NCBI GenBank assembly: GCA_944372195.1 | Contig: CALVYK010000004.1 | Span: 9,342 to 73,341, forward strand | Source: an uncultured Bacilli bacterium | Lineage (GTDB): Bacteria > Bacillota_I > Bacilli_A > RF39 > UBA660 | Length of the DNA: 64,000 bases | Reading direction: 5' to 3' | Shown here: positions 8,404 to 53,907 of the stretch, piece by piece | Numbering within the stretch: the stretch's first letter is position 1 | How the letters are laid out: each line of letters starts with the position of its first letter | Made by a program: the position numbers and the translations under genes | The notes under the pieces: generated by a model | Told to the model about the DNA's origin: nothing | Seen by the model: only the letters and a program-made list of their open reading frames with translations | The model's database searches: none

Positions 8404-10935
8404 ATGACATTAGATAGTGTAGATATAAATAAAGTAACGCCGATGATGAGGCAATATATAGAAACTAAAAAGCAAAATAAAGATATTATTTTATTTTATC
8501 GATTGGGAGATTTTTATGAAATGTTTTTTGAGGATGCAATCACAGCTTCTCATGAACTAGAACTTACTTTAACTGGTAAATCAGCTGGTTTAGAAGAAAG
8601 AATACCGATGTGTGGTGTCCCTTTTCATTCGGCTAATATCTATATAGATAAATTAGTAGCTAAAGGTTATAAAGTTGGTATTTGTGAACAATTAGAAGAT
8701 CCTAAAAATGCTAAAGGTATTGTTAAAAGAGGAATGGTTCAAATTGTAAGTAGTGGTACTTTATTTAATGAATCTTTAAACGAAAAAGAAAATAATTATA
8801 TTGGAGCAATTATTGATTTTAATTATGAATATGCTGTCAGTTATGGAGATATAACGACTGGTTCAATTTATACTTTTTTATTAGAACATAATCCTTCTAA
8901 ATTAGTAAGTGAAATAGTAAGTATTGGAATTAAAGAAGTGGTTGTTAGTGAGTCTTTCAATAAAGATATTTACTCATTATTTAAAAATAACTTTAAAATA
9001 ACTGTTTCTTTATTTGATAAAAAGACAGATTTAATCAAATATGATTATATTTATGAAGATATATCAGATGCAAGATTAGTTGAAGTAATAAAATATTTAT
9101 TAAGTTATATTGATTATACTCAGTTTAGAGATTTATCTCACTTACAAAAAGCTATTTTAAGAGAAACTAAAAATTATTTAAAAATGGACATTCATACTAA
9201 ACGTAATTTAGAACTAACTGAAACTTTAAGATTAAAACAAAGAAATCATTCTTTAATTTGGTTATTAGATAAAACTAAAACAGCAATGGGTTCAAGATTA
9301 CTTAAAAATTTTATTGAAAATCCATTAATTGATAAAAAAGAAATTGAAAAAAGATACGATTGTATTGAAAAATTATTAGAAGAATTTATTTTAACTAATG
9401 ATTTGGAAAAATATTTATTAGAAGTATATGATTTAGAAAGATTATCGGGTCGTATTGCTTTTGGCTCAGCTAATGCAAGAGACATGTTACAACTTAAAAA
9501 CTCATTAAAAGTTTTACCTAATATTAAAGATATATTAACTAAAATTGATTTTTATAAAAATATTGAAGATTTAAATGATTTATATGAATTATTAGATAGA
9601 AGTATTTATGAAAATCCACCTATGACTATTAAAGAAGGATATATAATTAAAGAAGGATATAATAGTGAATTGGATGAATTAAAAGATTTAAGAAAAGGTG
9701 GAAAAGATTTTGTTGCTAAGTTTGAAAATGAAGAACGAGAAAGAACAGGCATTAAAAATCTAAAGGTTGGTTACAATAAAGTATTTGGTTACTATATTGA
9801 AATATCTAAAGGAAATATAAACTTAGTAAAAGATGAATATGGTTACGAAAGAAAACAAACTTTATCTAATTGTGAAAGATATATAAGTCCAATTTTAAAA
9901 GAAAAAGAAAACTTAATATTAAATGCGGAAGAAAAGATTATCGATTTAGAATATCAATTGTTTGTTGAAATAAGAGATAAAGTTAAAGAATATATTCCAA
10001 GATTACAAGAAATTTCTAAAGTAATTAGTGAAATAGATTGCCTACAATCATTTGCTAATGTTTCATCTTGCAATAATTATGTAAGGCCTAAATTAGTTGA
10101 TGAAAGAGTTATCAAATTAATTGATGATCGGCATCCTGTAGTTGAACAAGTAATTGATTCTGAATATGTTCCAAATGATATTATTATGGATGAAAACACT
10201 AATATTTTATTGATTACAGGACCTAATATGGCTGGTAAATCAACATACATGCGTCAATTAGCAATAACTGTTATTATGTCTCAAATAGGCTGTTTTGTTC
10301 CTGCCAGTGAAGCTACATTACCAATATTTGATGCTATATTTACTCGTATTGGTGCATCTGATGATTTAGTAAGTGGTGAATCAACATTTATGGTTGAAAT
10401 GAATGAAGCAAATAATGCTATTAGTAATGCAACTTCTAATTCATTAATATTATTTGATGAATTGGGTAGGGGAACAGCAACATTTGATGGTATGGCTTTA
10501 GCTCAATCTATAATTGAATATATACATGATAATATTAAATGTAAAACTTTATTTTCAACTCATTATCACGAATTAACTGATTTAGAAAATAATCTAAAAA
10601 ATCTTAAAAATATTCATGTATCTGCTATTGAAGAAGATGGTAATATTACGTTTTTGCATAAAATTAAAAATGGTAGTATCGATAAAAGTTATGGTATCCA
10701 TGTTGCTAAATTAGCAAATTTACCTGATTCATTAATTAAAAGAGCTAATCAAATATTAAGTGTCTATGAAAATAAAGAGAAAAAAAGAGATGTTATTATT
10801 CAAGAATCTTTACCATTAGATGATTTAATAAAAGAAGAATCAGTTGTAGAAAAAGAACTTAAAAAAATAAATCCTTTAGAAATGACTCCTATTGAAGCAA
10901 TTAACTTTTTATATGAATTAAAGAAAAAGATTTGA
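8404..10935 (+). CDS. mutS: DNA mismatch repair protein MutS
   Basis: TPMMRQY, GDFYEMF, TGPNMAGKSTYMRQ, STFMVEM, DELGRGT, SYGIHVA. Confidence 0.98.
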   Translation: MTLDSVDINKVTPMMRQYIETKKQNKDIILFYRLGDFYEMFFEDAITASHELELTLTGKSAGLEERIPMCGVPFHSANIYIDKLVAKGYKVGICEQLEDPKNAKGIVKRGMVQIVSSGTLFNESLNEKENNYIGAIIDFNYEYAVSYGDITTGSIYTFLLEHNPSKLVSEIVSIGIKEVVVSESFNKDIYSLFKNNFKITVSLFDKKTDLIKYDYIYEDISDARLVEVIKYLLSYIDYTQFRDLSHLQKAILRETKNYLKMDIHTKRNLELTETLRLKQRNHSLIWLLDKTKTAMGSRLLKNFIENPLIDKKEIEKRYDCIEKLLEEFILTNDLEKYLLEVYDLERLSGRIAFGSANARDMLQLKNSLKVLPNIKDILTKIDFYKNIEDLNDLYELLDRSIYENPPMTIKEGYIIKEGYNSELDELKDLRKGGKDFVAKFENEERERTGIKNLKVGYNKVFGYYIEISKGNINLVKDEYGYERKQTLSNCERYISPILKEKENLILNAEEKIIDLEYQLFVEIRDKVKEYIPRLQEISKVISEIDCLQSFANVSSCNNYVRPKLVDERVIKLIDDRHPVVEQVIDSEYVPNDIIMDENTNILLITGPNMAGKSTYMRQLAITVIMSQIGCFVPASEATLPIFDAIFTRIGASDDLVSGESTFMVEMNEANNAISNATSNSLILFDELGRGTATFDGMALAQSIIEYIHDNIKCKTLFSTHYHELTDLENNLKNLKNIHVSAIEEDGNITFLHKIKNGSIDKSYGIHVAKLANLPDSLIKRANQILSVYENKEKKRDVIIQESLPLDDLIKEESVVEKELKKINPLEMTPIEAINFLYELKKKI

Positions 10936-10954
10936 TAAAATTCAAATCTTTTTG
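10925..10954 (+). terminator. Rho-independent terminator after mutS
   Basis: AAAAGATTTGA-taaaat-TCAAATCTTTT. Confidence 0.7.
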
Positions 10955-11055
10955 TTAATTTATTGTTATATGAGTTAATTTATAGTATAATTATATATAG
11001 GGAATATTAACTGTTGGGTACTTGCCGAGTTCTACAAGAAGGAGGCTTGATAATT

Positions 11056-11145
11056 ATGAAGAAAAAAGATTTATTAATCTCATATCTAATATTAATTATC
11101 ATTTTATTAACAATATCTTTATTGATATTATGTATAAAAAAATAG
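11056..11145 (+). CDS. Putative type I toxin, 29-aa single-TM peptide MKKKDLLISYLILIIILLTISLLILCIKK
   Basis: AAGGAGG RBS; promoter TTGTTA-17-TATAAT (10963-10991); hydrophobic core with basic ends; mRNA 5' and 3' ends complementary. Confidence 0.75.
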   Translation: MKKKDLLISYLILIIILLTISLLILCIKK

Positions 11146-11254
11146 TACTCAATCTAACGGATTAAGTACTTTTCTAAAATTAAAATAATAGGTGAGTACT
11201 CAACATAGGAAAGTTAAGTATTCCCTTTTTTATTATATTCAAGTTTCCTTGACA
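11135..11254 (-). ncRNA. Putative antisense antitoxin RNA, copy 1
   Basis: Minus-strand promoter TTGACA(11288-83)-17-TACAAT(11265-60) with a TG extension; 5' GAAA-loop hairpin; terminator AGTACTTAATC..GATTGAGTACT plus T-run at the toxin stop. Confidence 0.65.
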
Positions 11255-11410
11255 AATACATTGTATCATAAAATGATATGTTTGTCAAAACAAATTAATT
11301 AAAAATTAACAAAATTATTGTATATAAAGTTAATTTATAGTATAATTACTTATAGGGAATATTAACTGTTGGGTACTTGCCGAGTTCTTAACGAAGGAGG
11401 CTTGATGATT

Positions 11411-11499
11411 ATGAAGAAAAAAGATTATTAATCTCATATCTAATATTAATTATCATTTTATTAACAATATCTTTATTGATATTATGTATAAAAAAATAG
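11411..11499 (+). pseudogene. Frameshifted second copy of the putative toxin
   Basis: 1-nt deletion (gatttatta to gattatta) gives MKKKDY*; the rest of the ORF is identical to copy 1. Confidence 0.7.
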
Positions 11500-11604
11500 T
11501 ACTCAATCAAATTGATTAAGTACTTACCAAAACAAATTATAGGCGAGTACTCAACATAGCAAAGTTAAGCATTCCCTTTTTATTATACGCAAGTTTCCTT
11601 GACA
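11489..11604 (-). ncRNA. Putative antisense antitoxin RNA, copy 2
   Basis: Minus-strand promoter (-35 at 11633-38, -10 at 11610-15) and terminator hairpin as in copy 1. Confidence 0.6.
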
Positions 11605-11783
11605 AATACATTGTATCATAAAATAATATGTTTGTCAAAACAAATTAATTTTTAATTAATTTTATATTTCTAATTACTATAAATATTTTTATAAAATAAT
11701 TTTCAATTTAACATAATTTGTTTTTTGCCTATAATAATAGTCATTATTTATACTTTTATTAATAAATTTTGGGTGATGATTAT

Positions 11784-12746
11784 ATGAACAAAAATAGAGA
11801 AATATTAATTAAACAAAAAATATTAAATACAAGACTTGCAAAGTTTTTGAAAGAAAATAAAATTAAAAATTTAAGAATGATAAGTATGGGCAATTCTATT
11901 GCTTCTGGATATTCAGTTGTTAGAGTGACTATACCTTTGTTATTGAGAAATGAATCTTTATTTAATATTATGCAAAAAAATGGAATAAATGTTGATCTAC
12001 ATCATTTTGCTCGTGCACAAAATAATTATGACGAACATATTTTTGAATGGATAGAAAATAATATCAAAGAATCCATAATACATAAAATGAATAGAAGCGA
12101 TTACGAAAGTGATATTGTTGGTATGGGTACTCATGGATTATCTAAACAAAAAATAGAGGAGTATTATCCAACTGAAATTGAAAATGATAATGGCCTACAA
12201 AAAGTAATAACGGAATCAAATGATAATTTAGCAAATGTTATTATATATAATGGTGCTACTGGATCTTTAATTGATGGCTTAACTAGACACGGTACTATTT
12301 TTCAGCAATTTCTACATGGTGTAAAAAGAGATATTAACAGCATTGAATCTATTTTAAAAGTAATTCAAACATATAATAGAGAAAAGAATAGTAATACTCA
12401 AGTATATTTGTGTGGTGTTCCTAATTTTTTAGGTTTAAATTTATCAGAATTAATTAATGCTAAACTAAAAAAAATAGCTAGCAAATATGCAAACGTTACA
12501 TATGTCGAACCTGTAAAATCAAAACTTTTTTATCAAAAGATGAATAAAAAAAATAATTTTTTGGAATTTAAAGGAATAGATGTTCATTATGATGAAGACG
12601 AATATATTGAATTTAACAATAATATAATAAAATCTATTGTTGATAATTATCAAATTTTACAATCATTAATTAATGTTGATAGATTATTTTACAAATTAAA
12701 TAGACAAATTGAACTAGAAAAAAAATTATTTAATATCAGATCTTGA
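11784..12746 (+). CDS. SGNH/GDSL-like hypothetical protein, probably frameshifted near its 3' end (alternative frame open to 12936)
   Basis: ISMGNSIASGY block-I-like motif and DVH near the C-terminus; A8 run at 12718-12725. Confidence 0.6.
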   Translation: MNKNREILIKQKILNTRLAKFLKENKIKNLRMISMGNSIASGYSVVRVTIPLLLRNESLFNIMQKNGINVDLHHFARAQNNYDEHIFEWIENNIKESIIHKMNRSDYESDIVGMGTHGLSKQKIEEYYPTEIENDNGLQKVITESNDNLANVIIYNGATGSLIDGLTRHGTIFQQFLHGVKRDINSIESILKVIQTYNREKNSNTQVYLCGVPNFLGLNLSELINAKLKKIASKYANVTYVEPVKSKLFYQKMNKKNNFLEFKGIDVHYDEDEYIEFNNNIIKSIVDNYQILQSLINVDRLFYKLNRQIELEKKLFNIRS

Positions 12747-53567: not shown

Positions 53568-53848
53568 TTGACAAAATATAATAATTAATTTATAATTAAT
53601 ATTGAGATATATTTAATAGTTAGGTGTTTTGCTCCGTATGAAACGGAGGTGATCTTTATGAATTTTAAATTAAACGAAAGGAATAAAGATGCAATTAATT
53701 ATTGTATTTGCAATAATTGTGTTTTATACAGTTGTTGCTTTAAATAACAAAAATTAAAATTTAAAACACCGAATCATCATCGAAACGGTGTTTTCCCAAA
53801 AATTTTGAGCAAACATCTAATACAGGAATATTAAATGTATCTCTTTTT
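53568..53848 (+). other. Third type I toxin-antitoxin-like mRNA unit
   Basis: TTGACA-17-TATAAT (53568-53596); 5' end 53604-53634 pairs with 53807-53843; SD-sequestering hairpin CTCCGT..ACGGAG. Confidence 0.7.
53689..53757 (+). CDS. Putative type I toxin peptide MQLIIVFAIIVFYTVVALNNKN, or the 3' part of a frameshifted 32-aa toxin starting at 53658
   Basis: GAAAGGA upstream; single TM helix; overlapped by an out-of-frame ORF 53658-53747 that has a GGAGGTG RBS. Confidence 0.55.
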   Translation: MQLIIVFAIIVFYTVVALNNKN

Positions 53849-53872
53849 ATTGTATGAAATTTCTTTCATCTA
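53750..53872 (-). ncRNA. Putative antisense antitoxin RNA
   Basis: Minus-strand consensus promoter TTGACA(53906-01)-17-TATAAT(53883-78); 5' GAAA-loop hairpin; terminator AAAACACCG..CGGTGTTTT. Confidence 0.65.
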
Positions 53873-53907
53873 TATACATTATATAACATATAATTAATTT
53901 TGTCAAA

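Follow-up and report, generated by a model that had tools for sequence, protein, structure and literature searches.

The locus and the question it raises

What is encoded by the two repeats that lie behind the DNA-repair gene mutS in this low-G+C DNA (25% G+C)? The window, that is the whole 64,000-nt stretch of DNA that was analysed, holds at 10950–11660 two tandem units of ~354 nt (unit 1, 10950–11305; unit 2, 11305–11660) with a mean column identity of 94%. An earlier note had interpreted them as two modules resembling type I toxin–antitoxin systems. This interpretation is supported: the structural elements it listed were found, most of them with comparative backing. The picture of the locus itself held in part, since unit 1 is complete and unit 2 lacks an intact peptide. 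The units probably represent a new chromosomal, lineage-restricted type I toxin–antitoxin family, in which the antitoxin RNA overlaps the 3′ end of the toxin mRNA.

A conserved membrane peptide

Unit 1 contains an open reading frame on the + strand (11056–11145, stop codon TAG at 11143–11145), the translation of which is a 29-aa hydrophobic peptide, MKKKDLLISYLILIIILLTISLLILCIKK, with a GRAVY of 1.66, a net charge of +4 and about 20 hydrophobic residues in an unbroken run. The peptides of the family are 27–30 aa long and lead from a basic N-terminus through about 20 hydrophobic residues to a KK at the C-terminus; in an alignment of 69 peptides K29 is invariant and K30 is conserved in at least 90%. 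With a predicted mRNA of ~232 nt and an ORF of 29 aa, unit 1 falls within the T1TAdb definition of a type I system, an mRNA of 150–400 nt encoding a protein of 20–60 aa (given in an extract of PMC8594479).

Besides its hydrophobicity, the peptide carries the marks of a true coding sequence. Of 59 homologous units in which the start could be located, 53 retain an intact ORF (27–31 aa), even though stop codons are frequent at a G+C content of 25%; the other six are either frameshifted (three) or truncated close to a contig end (three). Among 24 distinct coding sequences of type A the pN/pS ratio is 0.14, showing purifying selection on the peptide; the ratios of type B (0.41, 15 distinct coding sequences) and type C (0.38, five), at ~0.4, suggest moderate constraint only. 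Variable columns number 12, 5 and 16 at the three codon positions, the third position dominating.

These figures bear on the idea that the units are a non-coding repeat (a structured RNA, or an element of the REP or MITE kind) with an incidental ORF. A multi-copy, strongly structured sequence of about 350 nt would fit such an element, as would the finding, in the alignment of 52 units, that nucleotide-invariant parts of the ORF pair with the start region (helix 4). Set against this are the open reading frames, the pN/pS of 0.14 and the excess of third-position changes. In addition, each chromosomal locus retains its own subtype across species, so that there is no sign of transposition, and repeat analysis of the window stretch found no terminal inverted repeats around the units. 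A non-coding repeat is highly improbable.

Unit 2 holds a remnant of the ORF (+ strand, 11411–11499, with TAG at 11497–11499), recognised by translation and by alignment with unit 1. One T is missing in codon 6, at about 11424–11426 (GATTTA to GATTA). Because of this 1-nt deletion the frame stops after six codons, reading MKKKDY-stop with the stop codon at 11429–11431, and the remainder of the peptide continues in another frame. The 29-aa peptide previously ascribed to each unit is thus present in unit 1 (11056–11145) and absent from unit 2, which is apparently a decayed toxin copy that has kept an apparently intact antisense gene.

The toxin mRNA is predicted to close end to end

The sense promoter of unit 1, TTGTTA-17-TATAAT (+ strand, 10963–10991), matches the consensus at 10/12 positions. 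The corresponding sequence of unit 2, TTGTAT-17-TATAAT (+ strand, 11318–11346), was read from the sequence and alignment; it falls under the promoter-scan threshold and its −35 element is weaker (3/6). The −10 element and the TTG of the −35 element are conserved in an alignment of 52 units (A2). Another promoter-like sequence on the + strand, TTGACA-17-AATGAT at 11249–11277, near the 3′ end of unit 1, was rejected as a conserved feature, as its −35 element is absent in subtypes B2 and C.

With its ends set by the positions of the promoter and the T-run, the predicted toxin mRNA of unit 1 is ~232 nt long (+ strand, 11000–11231), running from a GGG ~7 nt past the −10 element to the end of the T-run. 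It folds at −58.6 kcal/mol (z −5.27), and the predicted mRNA of unit 2 (+ strand, 11355–11581), which has the same closing helix, folds at −59.8 kcal/mol (z −6.48); no shuffle out of 200 folded as well as the real units 1 and 2. In the minimum-free-energy fold of unit 1 the leader (+ strand, 11000–11026) forms the 5′ arm of a 27-bp closing helix with a 3′ arm that, together with the T-run, spans 11191–11231. In unit 2, the leader from 11355 pairs in the same way with the 3′ segment and T-run at 11542–11581. The duplex of the two arms in unit 1 is worth −34.1 kcal/mol. On its own, the 3′ arm of unit 1 forms a local hairpin of −12.1 kcal/mol followed by UUUUUU, which is likely to be the mRNA terminator. 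The 5′ arm resembles stem-loop 1 of the antisense RNA described below.

Comparison of 52 distinct homologous units, from the sequences of which the structure was itself derived, showed that 95.9% of cells pair, against 39.0–49.3% when partners are slid. Of 38 pairs scored, 11 are changed on both sides; such changes cover 145 cells against 50.1 ± 5.8 after shuffling (0/500 shuffles as high), a statistic that overstates independence because the units are related by descent, much of the covariation separating three or four subtypes. The closing helix (helices 1 and 2) contributes 27 pairs, nine of them with changes on both sides. The earlier proposal that the 5′ leader pairs with the 3′ end and its T-run, enclosing the ORF, is therefore borne out by both the fold z-scores and the covariation.

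At the base of the closing helix lies a small hairpin (helix 3; + strand, 11031–11045) in which UUCU pairs with AGGA, part of the Shine–Dalgarno region; two of its three pairs covary (UA:32 CG:15; CG:30 UA:14). The Shine–Dalgarno sequence, GAAGGAGG, occupies 11038–11045, with the ATG at 11056 coming 10 nt later. Its GG stays unpaired in the closed fold of unit 1 mRNA, and the fold by itself therefore does not show that the closing helix would silence translation.

A predicted convergent antisense RNA gene

On the − strand, both units carry the promoter TTGACA-17-TACAAT with the TG of an extended −10 element (unit 1, 11260–11288; unit 2, 11610–11638), each matching 11/12 consensus positions. 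In DNA of 25% G+C, promoter-like hexamers occur at chance density (13 found, 11.4 expected); since the hexamers alone are not above chance, the case for this promoter rests on its conservation across relatives. Of 149 distinct units, 129 contain the strict motif and another three a looser version of it. Within TTGnnA-N17-TGnTAnnAT only the consensus-critical positions are conserved at 0.9 or above, the others lying at 0.4–0.5.

The antisense RNA predicted to start here, the putative antitoxin, is ~117 nt long in unit 1 (− strand, 11137–11253; fold z −4.85; 111 bits with the antisense covariance model R1) and ~113 nt and apparently intact in unit 2 (− strand, 11491–11603; 109.5 bits with R1). 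In unit 1 it consists, in order, of a 5′ hairpin (SL0), an A-rich linker, SL1, a terminator hairpin (SL2) and a U-run. The terminator scan placed SL2 at 11144–11170, where covariation also supports it, and its unit 2 counterpart at 11498–11524, both on the − strand; two terminators were found on this strand against 0.0 expected. Each hairpin (11170–11144 and 11524–11498 in the direction of transcription) thus lies at the toxin stop, and the T-run complements the last codons of the ORF; in unit 1 the U-run of SL2 is the complement of the AAAAAAA encoding the C-terminal lysines. Promoter, three hairpins and terminator together make up, in silico, the gene for a complementary RNA. The convergent near-consensus promoter for an antisense RNA of ~120 nt and the terminator at the toxin stop were both anticipated by the earlier note.

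The predicted antisense RNA overlaps the unit 1 mRNA over ~11137–11231, which covers the 3′ UTR along with the stop and the final two codons, and is complementary throughout to the terminal ~95 nt of the toxin mRNA. On the + strand, most units have no T-run past the antisense terminator hairpin, and the mRNA ends 60–80 nt further on.

Covariation is seen in SL1 and SL2: in an alignment of 100 sequences (A4), 11 of their 20 pairs show changes on both sides; the covarying pairs of SL2 are AU:55 GC:39, CG:61 UA:37 and CG:61 UA:31. Non-Watson–Crick cells are G-U when read on the antisense strand by 308 to 2 in SL1 and 92 to 3 in SL2 (400 to 5 in total), a count to be read with the fact that the structure was predicted from the same sequences taken as antisense RNA, an orientation that gives G-U an advantage over A-C. 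The 5′ hairpin SL0, which lies outside the mRNA, was found in 122 of the 139 sequences compared with 33% of shuffles, and many of its stems are compensated. The comparison of sequences thus indicates hairpins that are specific to the antisense strand.

Ten RNA-library runs matched, none with half of the sampled words; the four that were aligned consist of assembled contigs of relatives, mostly <95% alike, that come without strand, ends or expression level. Among them, one 692-nt metatranscriptome contig spans the tandem unit of a relative, as a strand-less record from a kind of library in which DNA may be present.

Copies, distribution and genomic context

Searched with model R1, the 1.28-Mb genome holds 10 such loci. 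Homologous units were also found on checking related genomes: of 150 genera sampled within the same family, 79 gave matches, with up to 15 matches per genome and tandem arrays of up to 4–5 units, and 137 genomes representing 25 other families in the class gave none. No match was found in phage, viral or plasmid records (IMG/VR viral contigs searched by pattern, plasmid and phage records by blastn), and neither these records nor the locus flanks revealed any linkage to prophages or CRISPR arrays. The loci are stable, syntenic and chromosomal, and lie beside housekeeping genes. Their flanks vary (mutS, mutL/proS, a sigma-factor-like gene, miaA) and hold no conserved partner gene. This genome also contains diverged modules, here called type E, in which a leader-like upstream ORF overlaps a 22-aa hydrophobic ORF.

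The same context could be read as that of a non-toxic small membrane protein, for example a regulatory or accessory subunit of a membrane complex, whose level is tuned by the antisense RNA. A conserved peptide, an antisense gene and stable syntenic loci beside housekeeping genes fit this equally well, and the absence of the modules from plasmid, phage and viral records gives no sign of an addiction role on behalf of a mobile element. Such a protein would not be expected to occupy 10 paralogous loci with tandem amplification in a reduced genome of 1.28 Mb, to suffer recurrent frameshifts with the antisense gene kept, or to lack a conserved partner gene at flanks that differ among loci; these patterns of copies, frameshifts and flanks are what type I toxin–antitoxin families typically show and unusual for a structural subunit. 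A non-toxin role is on this evidence unlikely.

Tandem copies of a short, cationic, hydrophobic peptide with no signal sequence might also suggest that the product is released, as a leaderless bacteriocin or a cytolysin resembling phenol-soluble modulins. Among the flanks examined, however, the loci share no immunity, transporter or modification genes, and the hydrophobic stretch of type A is continuous rather than amphipathic. Every copy, moreover, is faced by a convergent antisense RNA of its own and has an mRNA whose two ends pair with each other, an arrangement that suggests silencing rather than production. A released peptide is very unlikely. The tandem arrays, the 10 loci, the occasional broken toxin ORFs, the C-terminal cationic pair and the layout are all typical features in type I toxin–antitoxin families; a C-terminal cationic pair occurs in other type I toxins too (noted in part of PMC8309996).

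Comparison with known type I systems

In the Gram-positive families with 3′ overlap, the antisense RNA is encoded on the 3′ side and overlaps part of the mRNA, the end of the ORF included (as described in an extract of PMC8594479). The convergent antisense RNA on the 3′ side of the window units, overlapping over ~11137–11231, has the arrangement of TxpA/RatA, BsrG/SR4, BsrE/SR5, YonT/SR6 and SprG/SprF, in agreement with the earlier view that the layout typifies type I systems of Firmicutes; Pfam, NCBIfam and Rfam gave no sign of membership in any of these families by sequence. The closest likeness in B. subtilis is to bsrG/SR4 and txpA/RatA, which combine a convergent, 3′-overlapping antisense RNA with a small hydrophobic peptide and for which duplex cleavage by RNase III, and possibly an effect on Shine–Dalgarno access, would be the shared expectation (parts of PMC8594479 and PMC8309996). 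BsrG has 38 aa, compared with 27–30 aa in the window family (extract of PMC8309996). The two B. subtilis systems show no sequence relation to the window modules by Pfam, NCBIfam or Rfam, and are carried on prophage-like elements, whereas the window family occupies core syntenic intergenic regions. TxpA is longer still than BsrG, at about 59 aa, and we know of no 27-bp 5′–3′ closure with an antisense-targeted 3′ arm in either system.

The par locus of E. faecalis plasmid pAD1 (Fst, RNA I–RNA II) is alike in its toxin RNA of ~230 nt, its ~30-aa peptide with charged N-terminal residues, its convergent promoters, a small hairpin that sequesters the Shine–Dalgarno sequence, and an intramolecular helix in which the very 5′ end of that RNA is sequestered (extract of PMC7472228). 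The 27-bp covarying helix of the window family matches the last of these as a functional analogy, not as membership. The features that mark Fst/Ldr toxins in that extract of PMC7472228 are absent: none of the 69 aligned peptides has a W before a charged tail or anywhere else, the C-terminus being only (I/V)KK, and neither the window peptide nor the family consensus contains the proline or glycine of the transmembrane motif P/D/S/T-XXX-G(C). Nor do the window units have the direct repeats DRa/DRb or a shared bidirectional terminator; the mRNA would read through the antisense terminator to its own 3′ hairpin, so that the two RNAs do not share one. The antisense RNA is also longer, ~115 nt compared with ~40 nt in par.

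Long-distance 5′–3′ closure, giving a stable full-length toxin mRNA, is known from H. pylori aapA/IsoA and from hok/Sok of enterobacteria, which also have local hairpins near the Shine–Dalgarno sequence and several chromosomal copies, some of them inactivated (parts of PMC6733600 and PMC8309996). The antisense RNA of aapA/IsoA and hok/Sok binds the 5′ part of a 3′-processed mRNA, whereas in the window family its gene overlaps the 3′ end and its target is the 3′ arm of the closure; the window host is moreover of Gram-positive type and there is no sequence relationship. With their overlapping upstream ORF, the type E modules are reminiscent of mok/hok, in which a mok leader ORF overlaps hok; a leader ORF is lacking in both unit 1 and unit 2.

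The type I toxins of C. difficile are about 50 aa long and linked to prophages or CRISPR arrays, a linkage not seen for the window family. The C. difficile modules are otherwise similar in belonging to a low-G+C gut Firmicute and in combining small membrane peptides, convergent antisense RNAs and multiple copies (extracts of PMC5961336 and PMC6563280).

A proposed mechanism

On the preferred reading, that of a type I toxin–antitoxin family, the + strand would produce an mRNA of ~230 nt for a membrane peptide of 27–30 aa, and the − strand a structured RNA of ~115 nt from the convergent extended −10 promoter. The mRNA would first terminate at its local 3′ hairpin and U-run. The leader, a degenerate copy of antisense stem-loop 1, would then invade this hairpin to form the 27-bp 5′–3′ helix, protecting both ends of the mRNA, while small hairpins at its base would hold the Shine–Dalgarno sequence and the region of the start codon; the closed mRNA would be stable and poorly translated. 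Antisense RNA and leader would finally compete for the same 3′ segment, and by computed energy the antisense:mRNA duplex is by far the stronger, at −65.5 kcal/mol against −34.1 for leader and 3′ arm. The resulting duplex of ~95 bp would be cut by RNase III, so that the peptide would not be made while antisense RNA is in supply. The genome encodes an RNase III gene (235.6 bits, above cut-off).

A wider reading, which we regard as a doubtful possibility, is that of a lineage-specific superfamily of type I modules built on one RNA scaffold, in which the leader is a degenerate copy of the mRNA's own antitoxin, the RNA acts as a three-state switch (terminator hairpin; self-closed, stable and silent mRNA; antitoxin-bound, degraded mRNA) and the payload has been exchanged. 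The scaffold would have been re-used in type E, with its mok-like leader ORF overlapping the 22-aa hydrophobic ORF. If so, ~10 copies in ~1.3 Mb would imply that reduced gut Bacilli depend on these modules, for instance for phage exclusion or for holding core regions (mutS, mutL) in place.

Novelty and significance

As the earlier note had supposed, the peptide belongs to no recognised family. For the four peptides of this genome, Pfam and NCBIfam gave nothing better than E 2.3 (noise at 2.3 and 2.9), and all four are absent from a collection of 15 billion proteins; the ESM Atlas gave no usable match for the peptide. In relatives, called peptides are often mis-called, with a TGA read through or the N-terminus extended. 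Rfam, searched up to E 10, returned only rli37 (19 bits, gathering score 90) and U3 (13.6 bits, gathering score 34), both taken as chance matches far under their gathering scores. The family thus looks new relative to Pfam, NCBIfam and Rfam, with some overlap possible with the candidates of Fozo et al. 2010 (PMC2887945), whose supplements reportedly list about 2000 candidate ORFs.

Uncultured, small-genome gut Bacilli of low G+C content form a large group in which the family is abundant, and it could be annotated systematically with the antisense covariance model and the peptide profile from this analysis. Its natural variation includes many compensatory changes in a 5′–3′ closing helix one arm of which would be targeted by the antisense RNA, making it a good system for the study of toxin mRNA silencing, if not a new principle. 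Full-text literature on type I toxin–antitoxin systems yielded nothing on this lineage, type I terms not being combined with its name, and the literature naming Ventrenecus yielded nothing on toxin–antitoxin systems. NCBI lists the genus Ventrenecus as Bacteria incertae sedis.

Organisation of the two units downstream of mutS

The mutS gene (window 8404-10935; five MutS Pfam domains) is directly followed by two head-to-tail units of ~354 nt each, which are 94% identical. In unit 1, the sense promoter (TTGTTA-17-TATAAT; 10963-10991, + strand) is predicted to start transcription near the GGG at 11000, the start of a 27-nt leader. Next comes a small hairpin in which UUCU is paired to AGGA, part of the Shine-Dalgarno sequence GAAGGAGG (11038-11045), and then a 29-codon ORF from an ATG at 11056 to a TAG stop at 11143-11145, encoding the peptide MKKKDLLISYLILIIILLTISLLILCIKK (net charge +4, GRAVY 1.66). 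Beyond the ORF, a hairpin directly adjoins the stop on the + strand; a spacer separates it from a 3' segment (11191-11225), which is followed by TTTTTT. On the − strand, an antisense promoter (TTGACA-17-TACAAT with an upstream TG; 11288-11260) is directed toward the ORF, and the post-stop hairpin read on this strand, followed by a T-run (11170-11144 plus tail), constitutes the predicted antisense terminator; a scan detected two − strand terminators against 0.0 in shuffles. Predicted folds of both RNAs are also more stable than those of shuffles, with z of -5.27 and -6.48 for the mRNAs of the two units and -4.85 for the antisense RNA.

The antisense terminator T-run is the complement of the AAAAAAA encoding the C-terminal lysines. 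The codons ATA AAA AAA plus stop (11135-11145, and homologous positions) also template the terminator U-run, a role which may account for the near-invariance of the (I/V)KK end and its nucleotides across subtypes (groups of homologous units).

The earlier note placed a 29-aa peptide in each unit. This holds for unit 1; in unit 2 the frame ends at MKKKDY-stop, one T being missing in codon 6 and the other 23 codons being recognisable in a different frame. The leader, Shine-Dalgarno, closing helix (between leader and 3' arm) and antisense gene of unit 2 are apparently intact, and its sense -35 is weaker. The window thus appears to hold one intact module and, if the deletion is real rather than an assembly error, one toxin-dead module. 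Unit 2 may still supply antisense RNA. Downstream of the array, a 320-aa ORF (11784-12746) matches nothing in Pfam at E up to 0.001; among the loci compared for synteny it matched only the window's own locus.

Homologous units in the source genome and its relatives

The source genome (1.28 Mb, 50 contigs, 25% G+C, 87% complete) carries additional diverged copies between mutL and proS, downstream of a sigma-factor-like gene, and between miaA and a 288-aa ORF. By BLAST, 15 of the 25 same-genus genomes searched held strong matches to unit 1 (E below 1e-20), and beyond the genus the matches were all short and AT-rich; in other species the arrays reach four to five units. The alignment set comprised 75 nhmmer hits from genus loci, 52 of them distinct full-length units. 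A degenerate 3'-arm pattern, scanned over one-genome-per-species contigs, yielded at least 121 loci, and these contributed 98 further near-full units. Among the matches listed, these were gut MAGs throughout, with records titled uncultured Bacilli, Tenericutes, Erysipelotrichaceae, Mycoplasma, Candidatus Ventrenecus and Firmicutes bacterium CAG:582, and a few under other labels.

Coding potential of the peptide

An ORF of 27-31 aa is kept in 53 of the 59 units with a locatable start; of the other six, three are frameshifted and three, from one genome, end near contig ends. Subtype A has a pN/pS of 0.14 (pairwise Nei-Gojobori, 24 distinct coding sequences), with 12, 5 and 16 variable columns at codon positions 1, 2 and 3. 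The same method gave 0.41 for subtype B (15 sequences) and 0.38 for subtype C (5 sequences). The further 98 units hold a hydrophobic ORF of 26-41 aa in 82 cases and ORFs of 2-12 aa in four; the remaining 12 did not match the SD-ATG regular expression and so fall outside this tally. The peptides of subtypes A, B and D fit the consensus MKKKxFxIKxLxLIxIILxLLIxMIxVIKK with no internal gap; K29 is invariant and K30 is at least 90% conserved. On these data, the ORF is judged to be coding.

Evidence for an antisense gene

Sequence evidence of four kinds favours a functional − strand RNA. Firstly, of 149 distinct units, 129 carry the strict promoter motif (TTG-n-n-A, 14-16 nt, TG-n-TA-n-n-n-T) and three more a looser form. 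Secondly, conservation across the 149 reaches 0.9 or above only at consensus-critical positions (in the -35, T, T, G and the last A; in the -10, T, A, A and T; and the TG between them), compared with 0.4-0.5 at other hexamer positions and 0.3-0.8 over most of the 17-nt spacer. Thirdly, RNAalifold, run on 100 of 139 distinct antisense sequences, returned a hairpin, SL1, and the terminator hairpin, SL2, with both sides changed in 11 of 20 pairs (for example CG:57/UA:43 and AU:55/GC:39). Non-Watson-Crick cells of these hairpins, read on the antisense strand, are G-U rather than A-C by 308 to 2 in SL1, and G-U by 92 to 3 in SL2; these G-U cells would become A-C mismatches on the sense strand. Prediction in the antisense orientation biases this count, yet the reverse type is strikingly near-absent. 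Finally, the 5'-terminal 20 nt of the antisense RNA extend past the mRNA T-run; 122 of 139 sequences form a 5' hairpin of at least 4 bp there, compared with 33% of shuffles. Its stems are compensated (CAAG/CUUG, GAAG/CUUC, GAGA/UCUC, CAGGA/UCCUG, GUA/UAC), often enclosing GAAA, and no sense-strand feature accounts for it.

Sense RNA structure and a proposed leader-antitoxin competition

The sense structure scored in the 52 units consists of the two-part closing helix, the anti-SD hairpin and a GAUAA..AUG / CAU.UUUAU helix whose latter arm lies within the ORF. Standard pairs occupy 95.9% of cells, compared with 39.0-49.3% once the 3' partners have been displaced by 1-3 columns. Both sides have changed in 11 of 38 pairs (for example AU:35/GC:16, CG:30/UA:21, CG:29/UA:20 and UA:29/CG:20), and double-sided changes number 145 cells against 50.1 +/- 5.8 in shuffles, none of 500 reaching 145; the 52 units share kinship and much of their variation divides three or four subtypes, so that independent events are far fewer than the cell counts imply. 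The start-codon helix is nearly invariant and hence shows no covariation, which counts neither for it nor against it.

The mRNA 3' segment alone forms a local hairpin (-12.1 kcal/mol) with UUUUUU directly after it, plausibly an intrinsic terminator. The 5' leader resembles antisense SL1 minus its loop, and is computed to be able to open this hairpin by pairing with both arms (-34.1 kcal/mol); the antisense RNA, perfectly complementary to that 3' segment, gives -65.5 kcal/mol. The leader thus competes with the antisense RNA for one site, from which we infer an order of steps. The mRNA would first terminate at the local 3' hairpin. The leader would then close the mRNA and protect its ends; at the foot of the long helix, small hairpins would hold the Shine-Dalgarno and the start region. 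Lastly, the antisense RNA would displace the leader to form a ~95-bp duplex. For bsrG/SR4, such duplexes are described as degraded by RNase III (PMC8309996); an RNase III gene is present in the source genome (235.6 bits).

Type E modules

A third, diverged module on the same RNA scaffold, termed type E, lies at window 53568-53906. Its sense (53568-53596, + strand) and antisense (53906-53878, − strand) promoters each match the consensus at 12 of 12 positions, its leader and 3' arm can close the RNA, and an anti-SD hairpin, CUCCGU/ACGGAG, spans 53632-53648. R1, a covariance model of the antisense RNA, matches at 53752-53870 (− strand, 58.5 bits). The Shine-Dalgarno-led ORF, MNFKLNERNK... (53649/53658-53747), shares sequence in a different frame with a hydrophobic ORF of 22 aa, MQLIIVFAIIVFYTVVALNNKN (53689-53757), a pairing reminiscent of the mok/hok arrangement. 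Additional type E modules occur elsewhere in the source genome (a tandem pair at C1:61150-61950, and C9:31810-32230) and at loci L028, L029 and L031 of related genomes G016, G017 and G005. Between L028 and L031, from two species, five differences were counted by eye within the ORF overlap. All five alter a residue in the Shine-Dalgarno-led frame, whereas the hydrophobic frame, MELIVIFITIVLYTI(I/V)VLKK(G/D), has three synonymous differences and one I/V exchange, which argues that the short hydrophobic ORF is the constrained one.

Relation to named systems

No model in Pfam, NCBIfam or Rfam matches the module family, and the source genome's four peptides are absent from a collection of 15 billion proteins. 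A peptide profile search of 1.84 billion representatives returned 83 proteins at E up to 0.001; the family peptide was present in all 19 inspected, several of which are gene-calling artefacts with a TGA stop read as W or an N-terminal extension. Public calls of relatives P0001-P0003, P0008, P0018 and P0029 read the subtype B TGA as tryptophan (...IKKWH...) or use an upstream start. TGA is a stop codon in the source genome, since table 11 leaves its long housekeeping ORFs open, though some MAGs of the lineage were probably annotated with genetic code 4.

Full-text searches of the type I toxin-antitoxin literature, with terms not combined with the lineage name and with the supplements of Fozo et al. 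2010 outside their scope, returned nothing on this lineage. The defining features of Fst/Ldr (PMC7472228) are a tryptophan, PXXXG, direct repeats and a shared terminator, together with a helix sequestering the 5' end; the module family shares this helix alone and lacks the other four. It resembles B. subtilis 3'-overlap systems in layout but not in sequence. The end-to-end mRNA closure described for aapA/IsoA and hok/Sok (PMC6733600) is a common feature, but the antisense target is different. By its conserved sequence and structure, this appears to be a real, well-conserved two-RNA module, with transcription and toxicity predicted. The kind is already known; new, as far as checked, are the family itself, how abundant it is in reduced genomes, and the leader-antitoxin mimicry.

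Distribution and synteny

R1 (118 positions, 20 pairs) has 10 matches in the source genome. With one genome per genus, it matched 80 of 151 genomes of the same family at E up to 0.001 (79 of 150 genera, source genome counted), including 63 of 118 good-quality genomes, with up to 14 matches per genome. Across the order, at E up to 1e-5, matches were found in 81 of the 149 genomes from the family (up to 15 per genome), and the single genome of the one further family sampled had none. Across the class, at E up to 0.001, it matched 4 of 13 in the family and 0 of 137 genomes across 25 other families. In all these counts, absence means not found among the genomes searched, under stricter filters.

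Viral contigs and plasmid and phage records gave no match for the module family. Loci are syntenic within the genus, each retaining its own subtype; arrays lie downstream of mutS in five further species, and the mutL, sigma-factor and 288-aa-ORF loci are conserved likewise. This pattern suggests vertical descent, with tandem units gained and lost locally, rather than transposition.

In the source genome mutS (window 8404-10935) and mutL (C1:18290-20074) are not adjacent; the module directly behind mutS is of subtype A and the one directly behind mutL of subtype B2, and related species conserve both positions. Upstream of mutL, a 226-aa ORF (C1:17497-18177) contains a collagen-like GPT repeat run, GPTGPTGPTGPTGPTGP.
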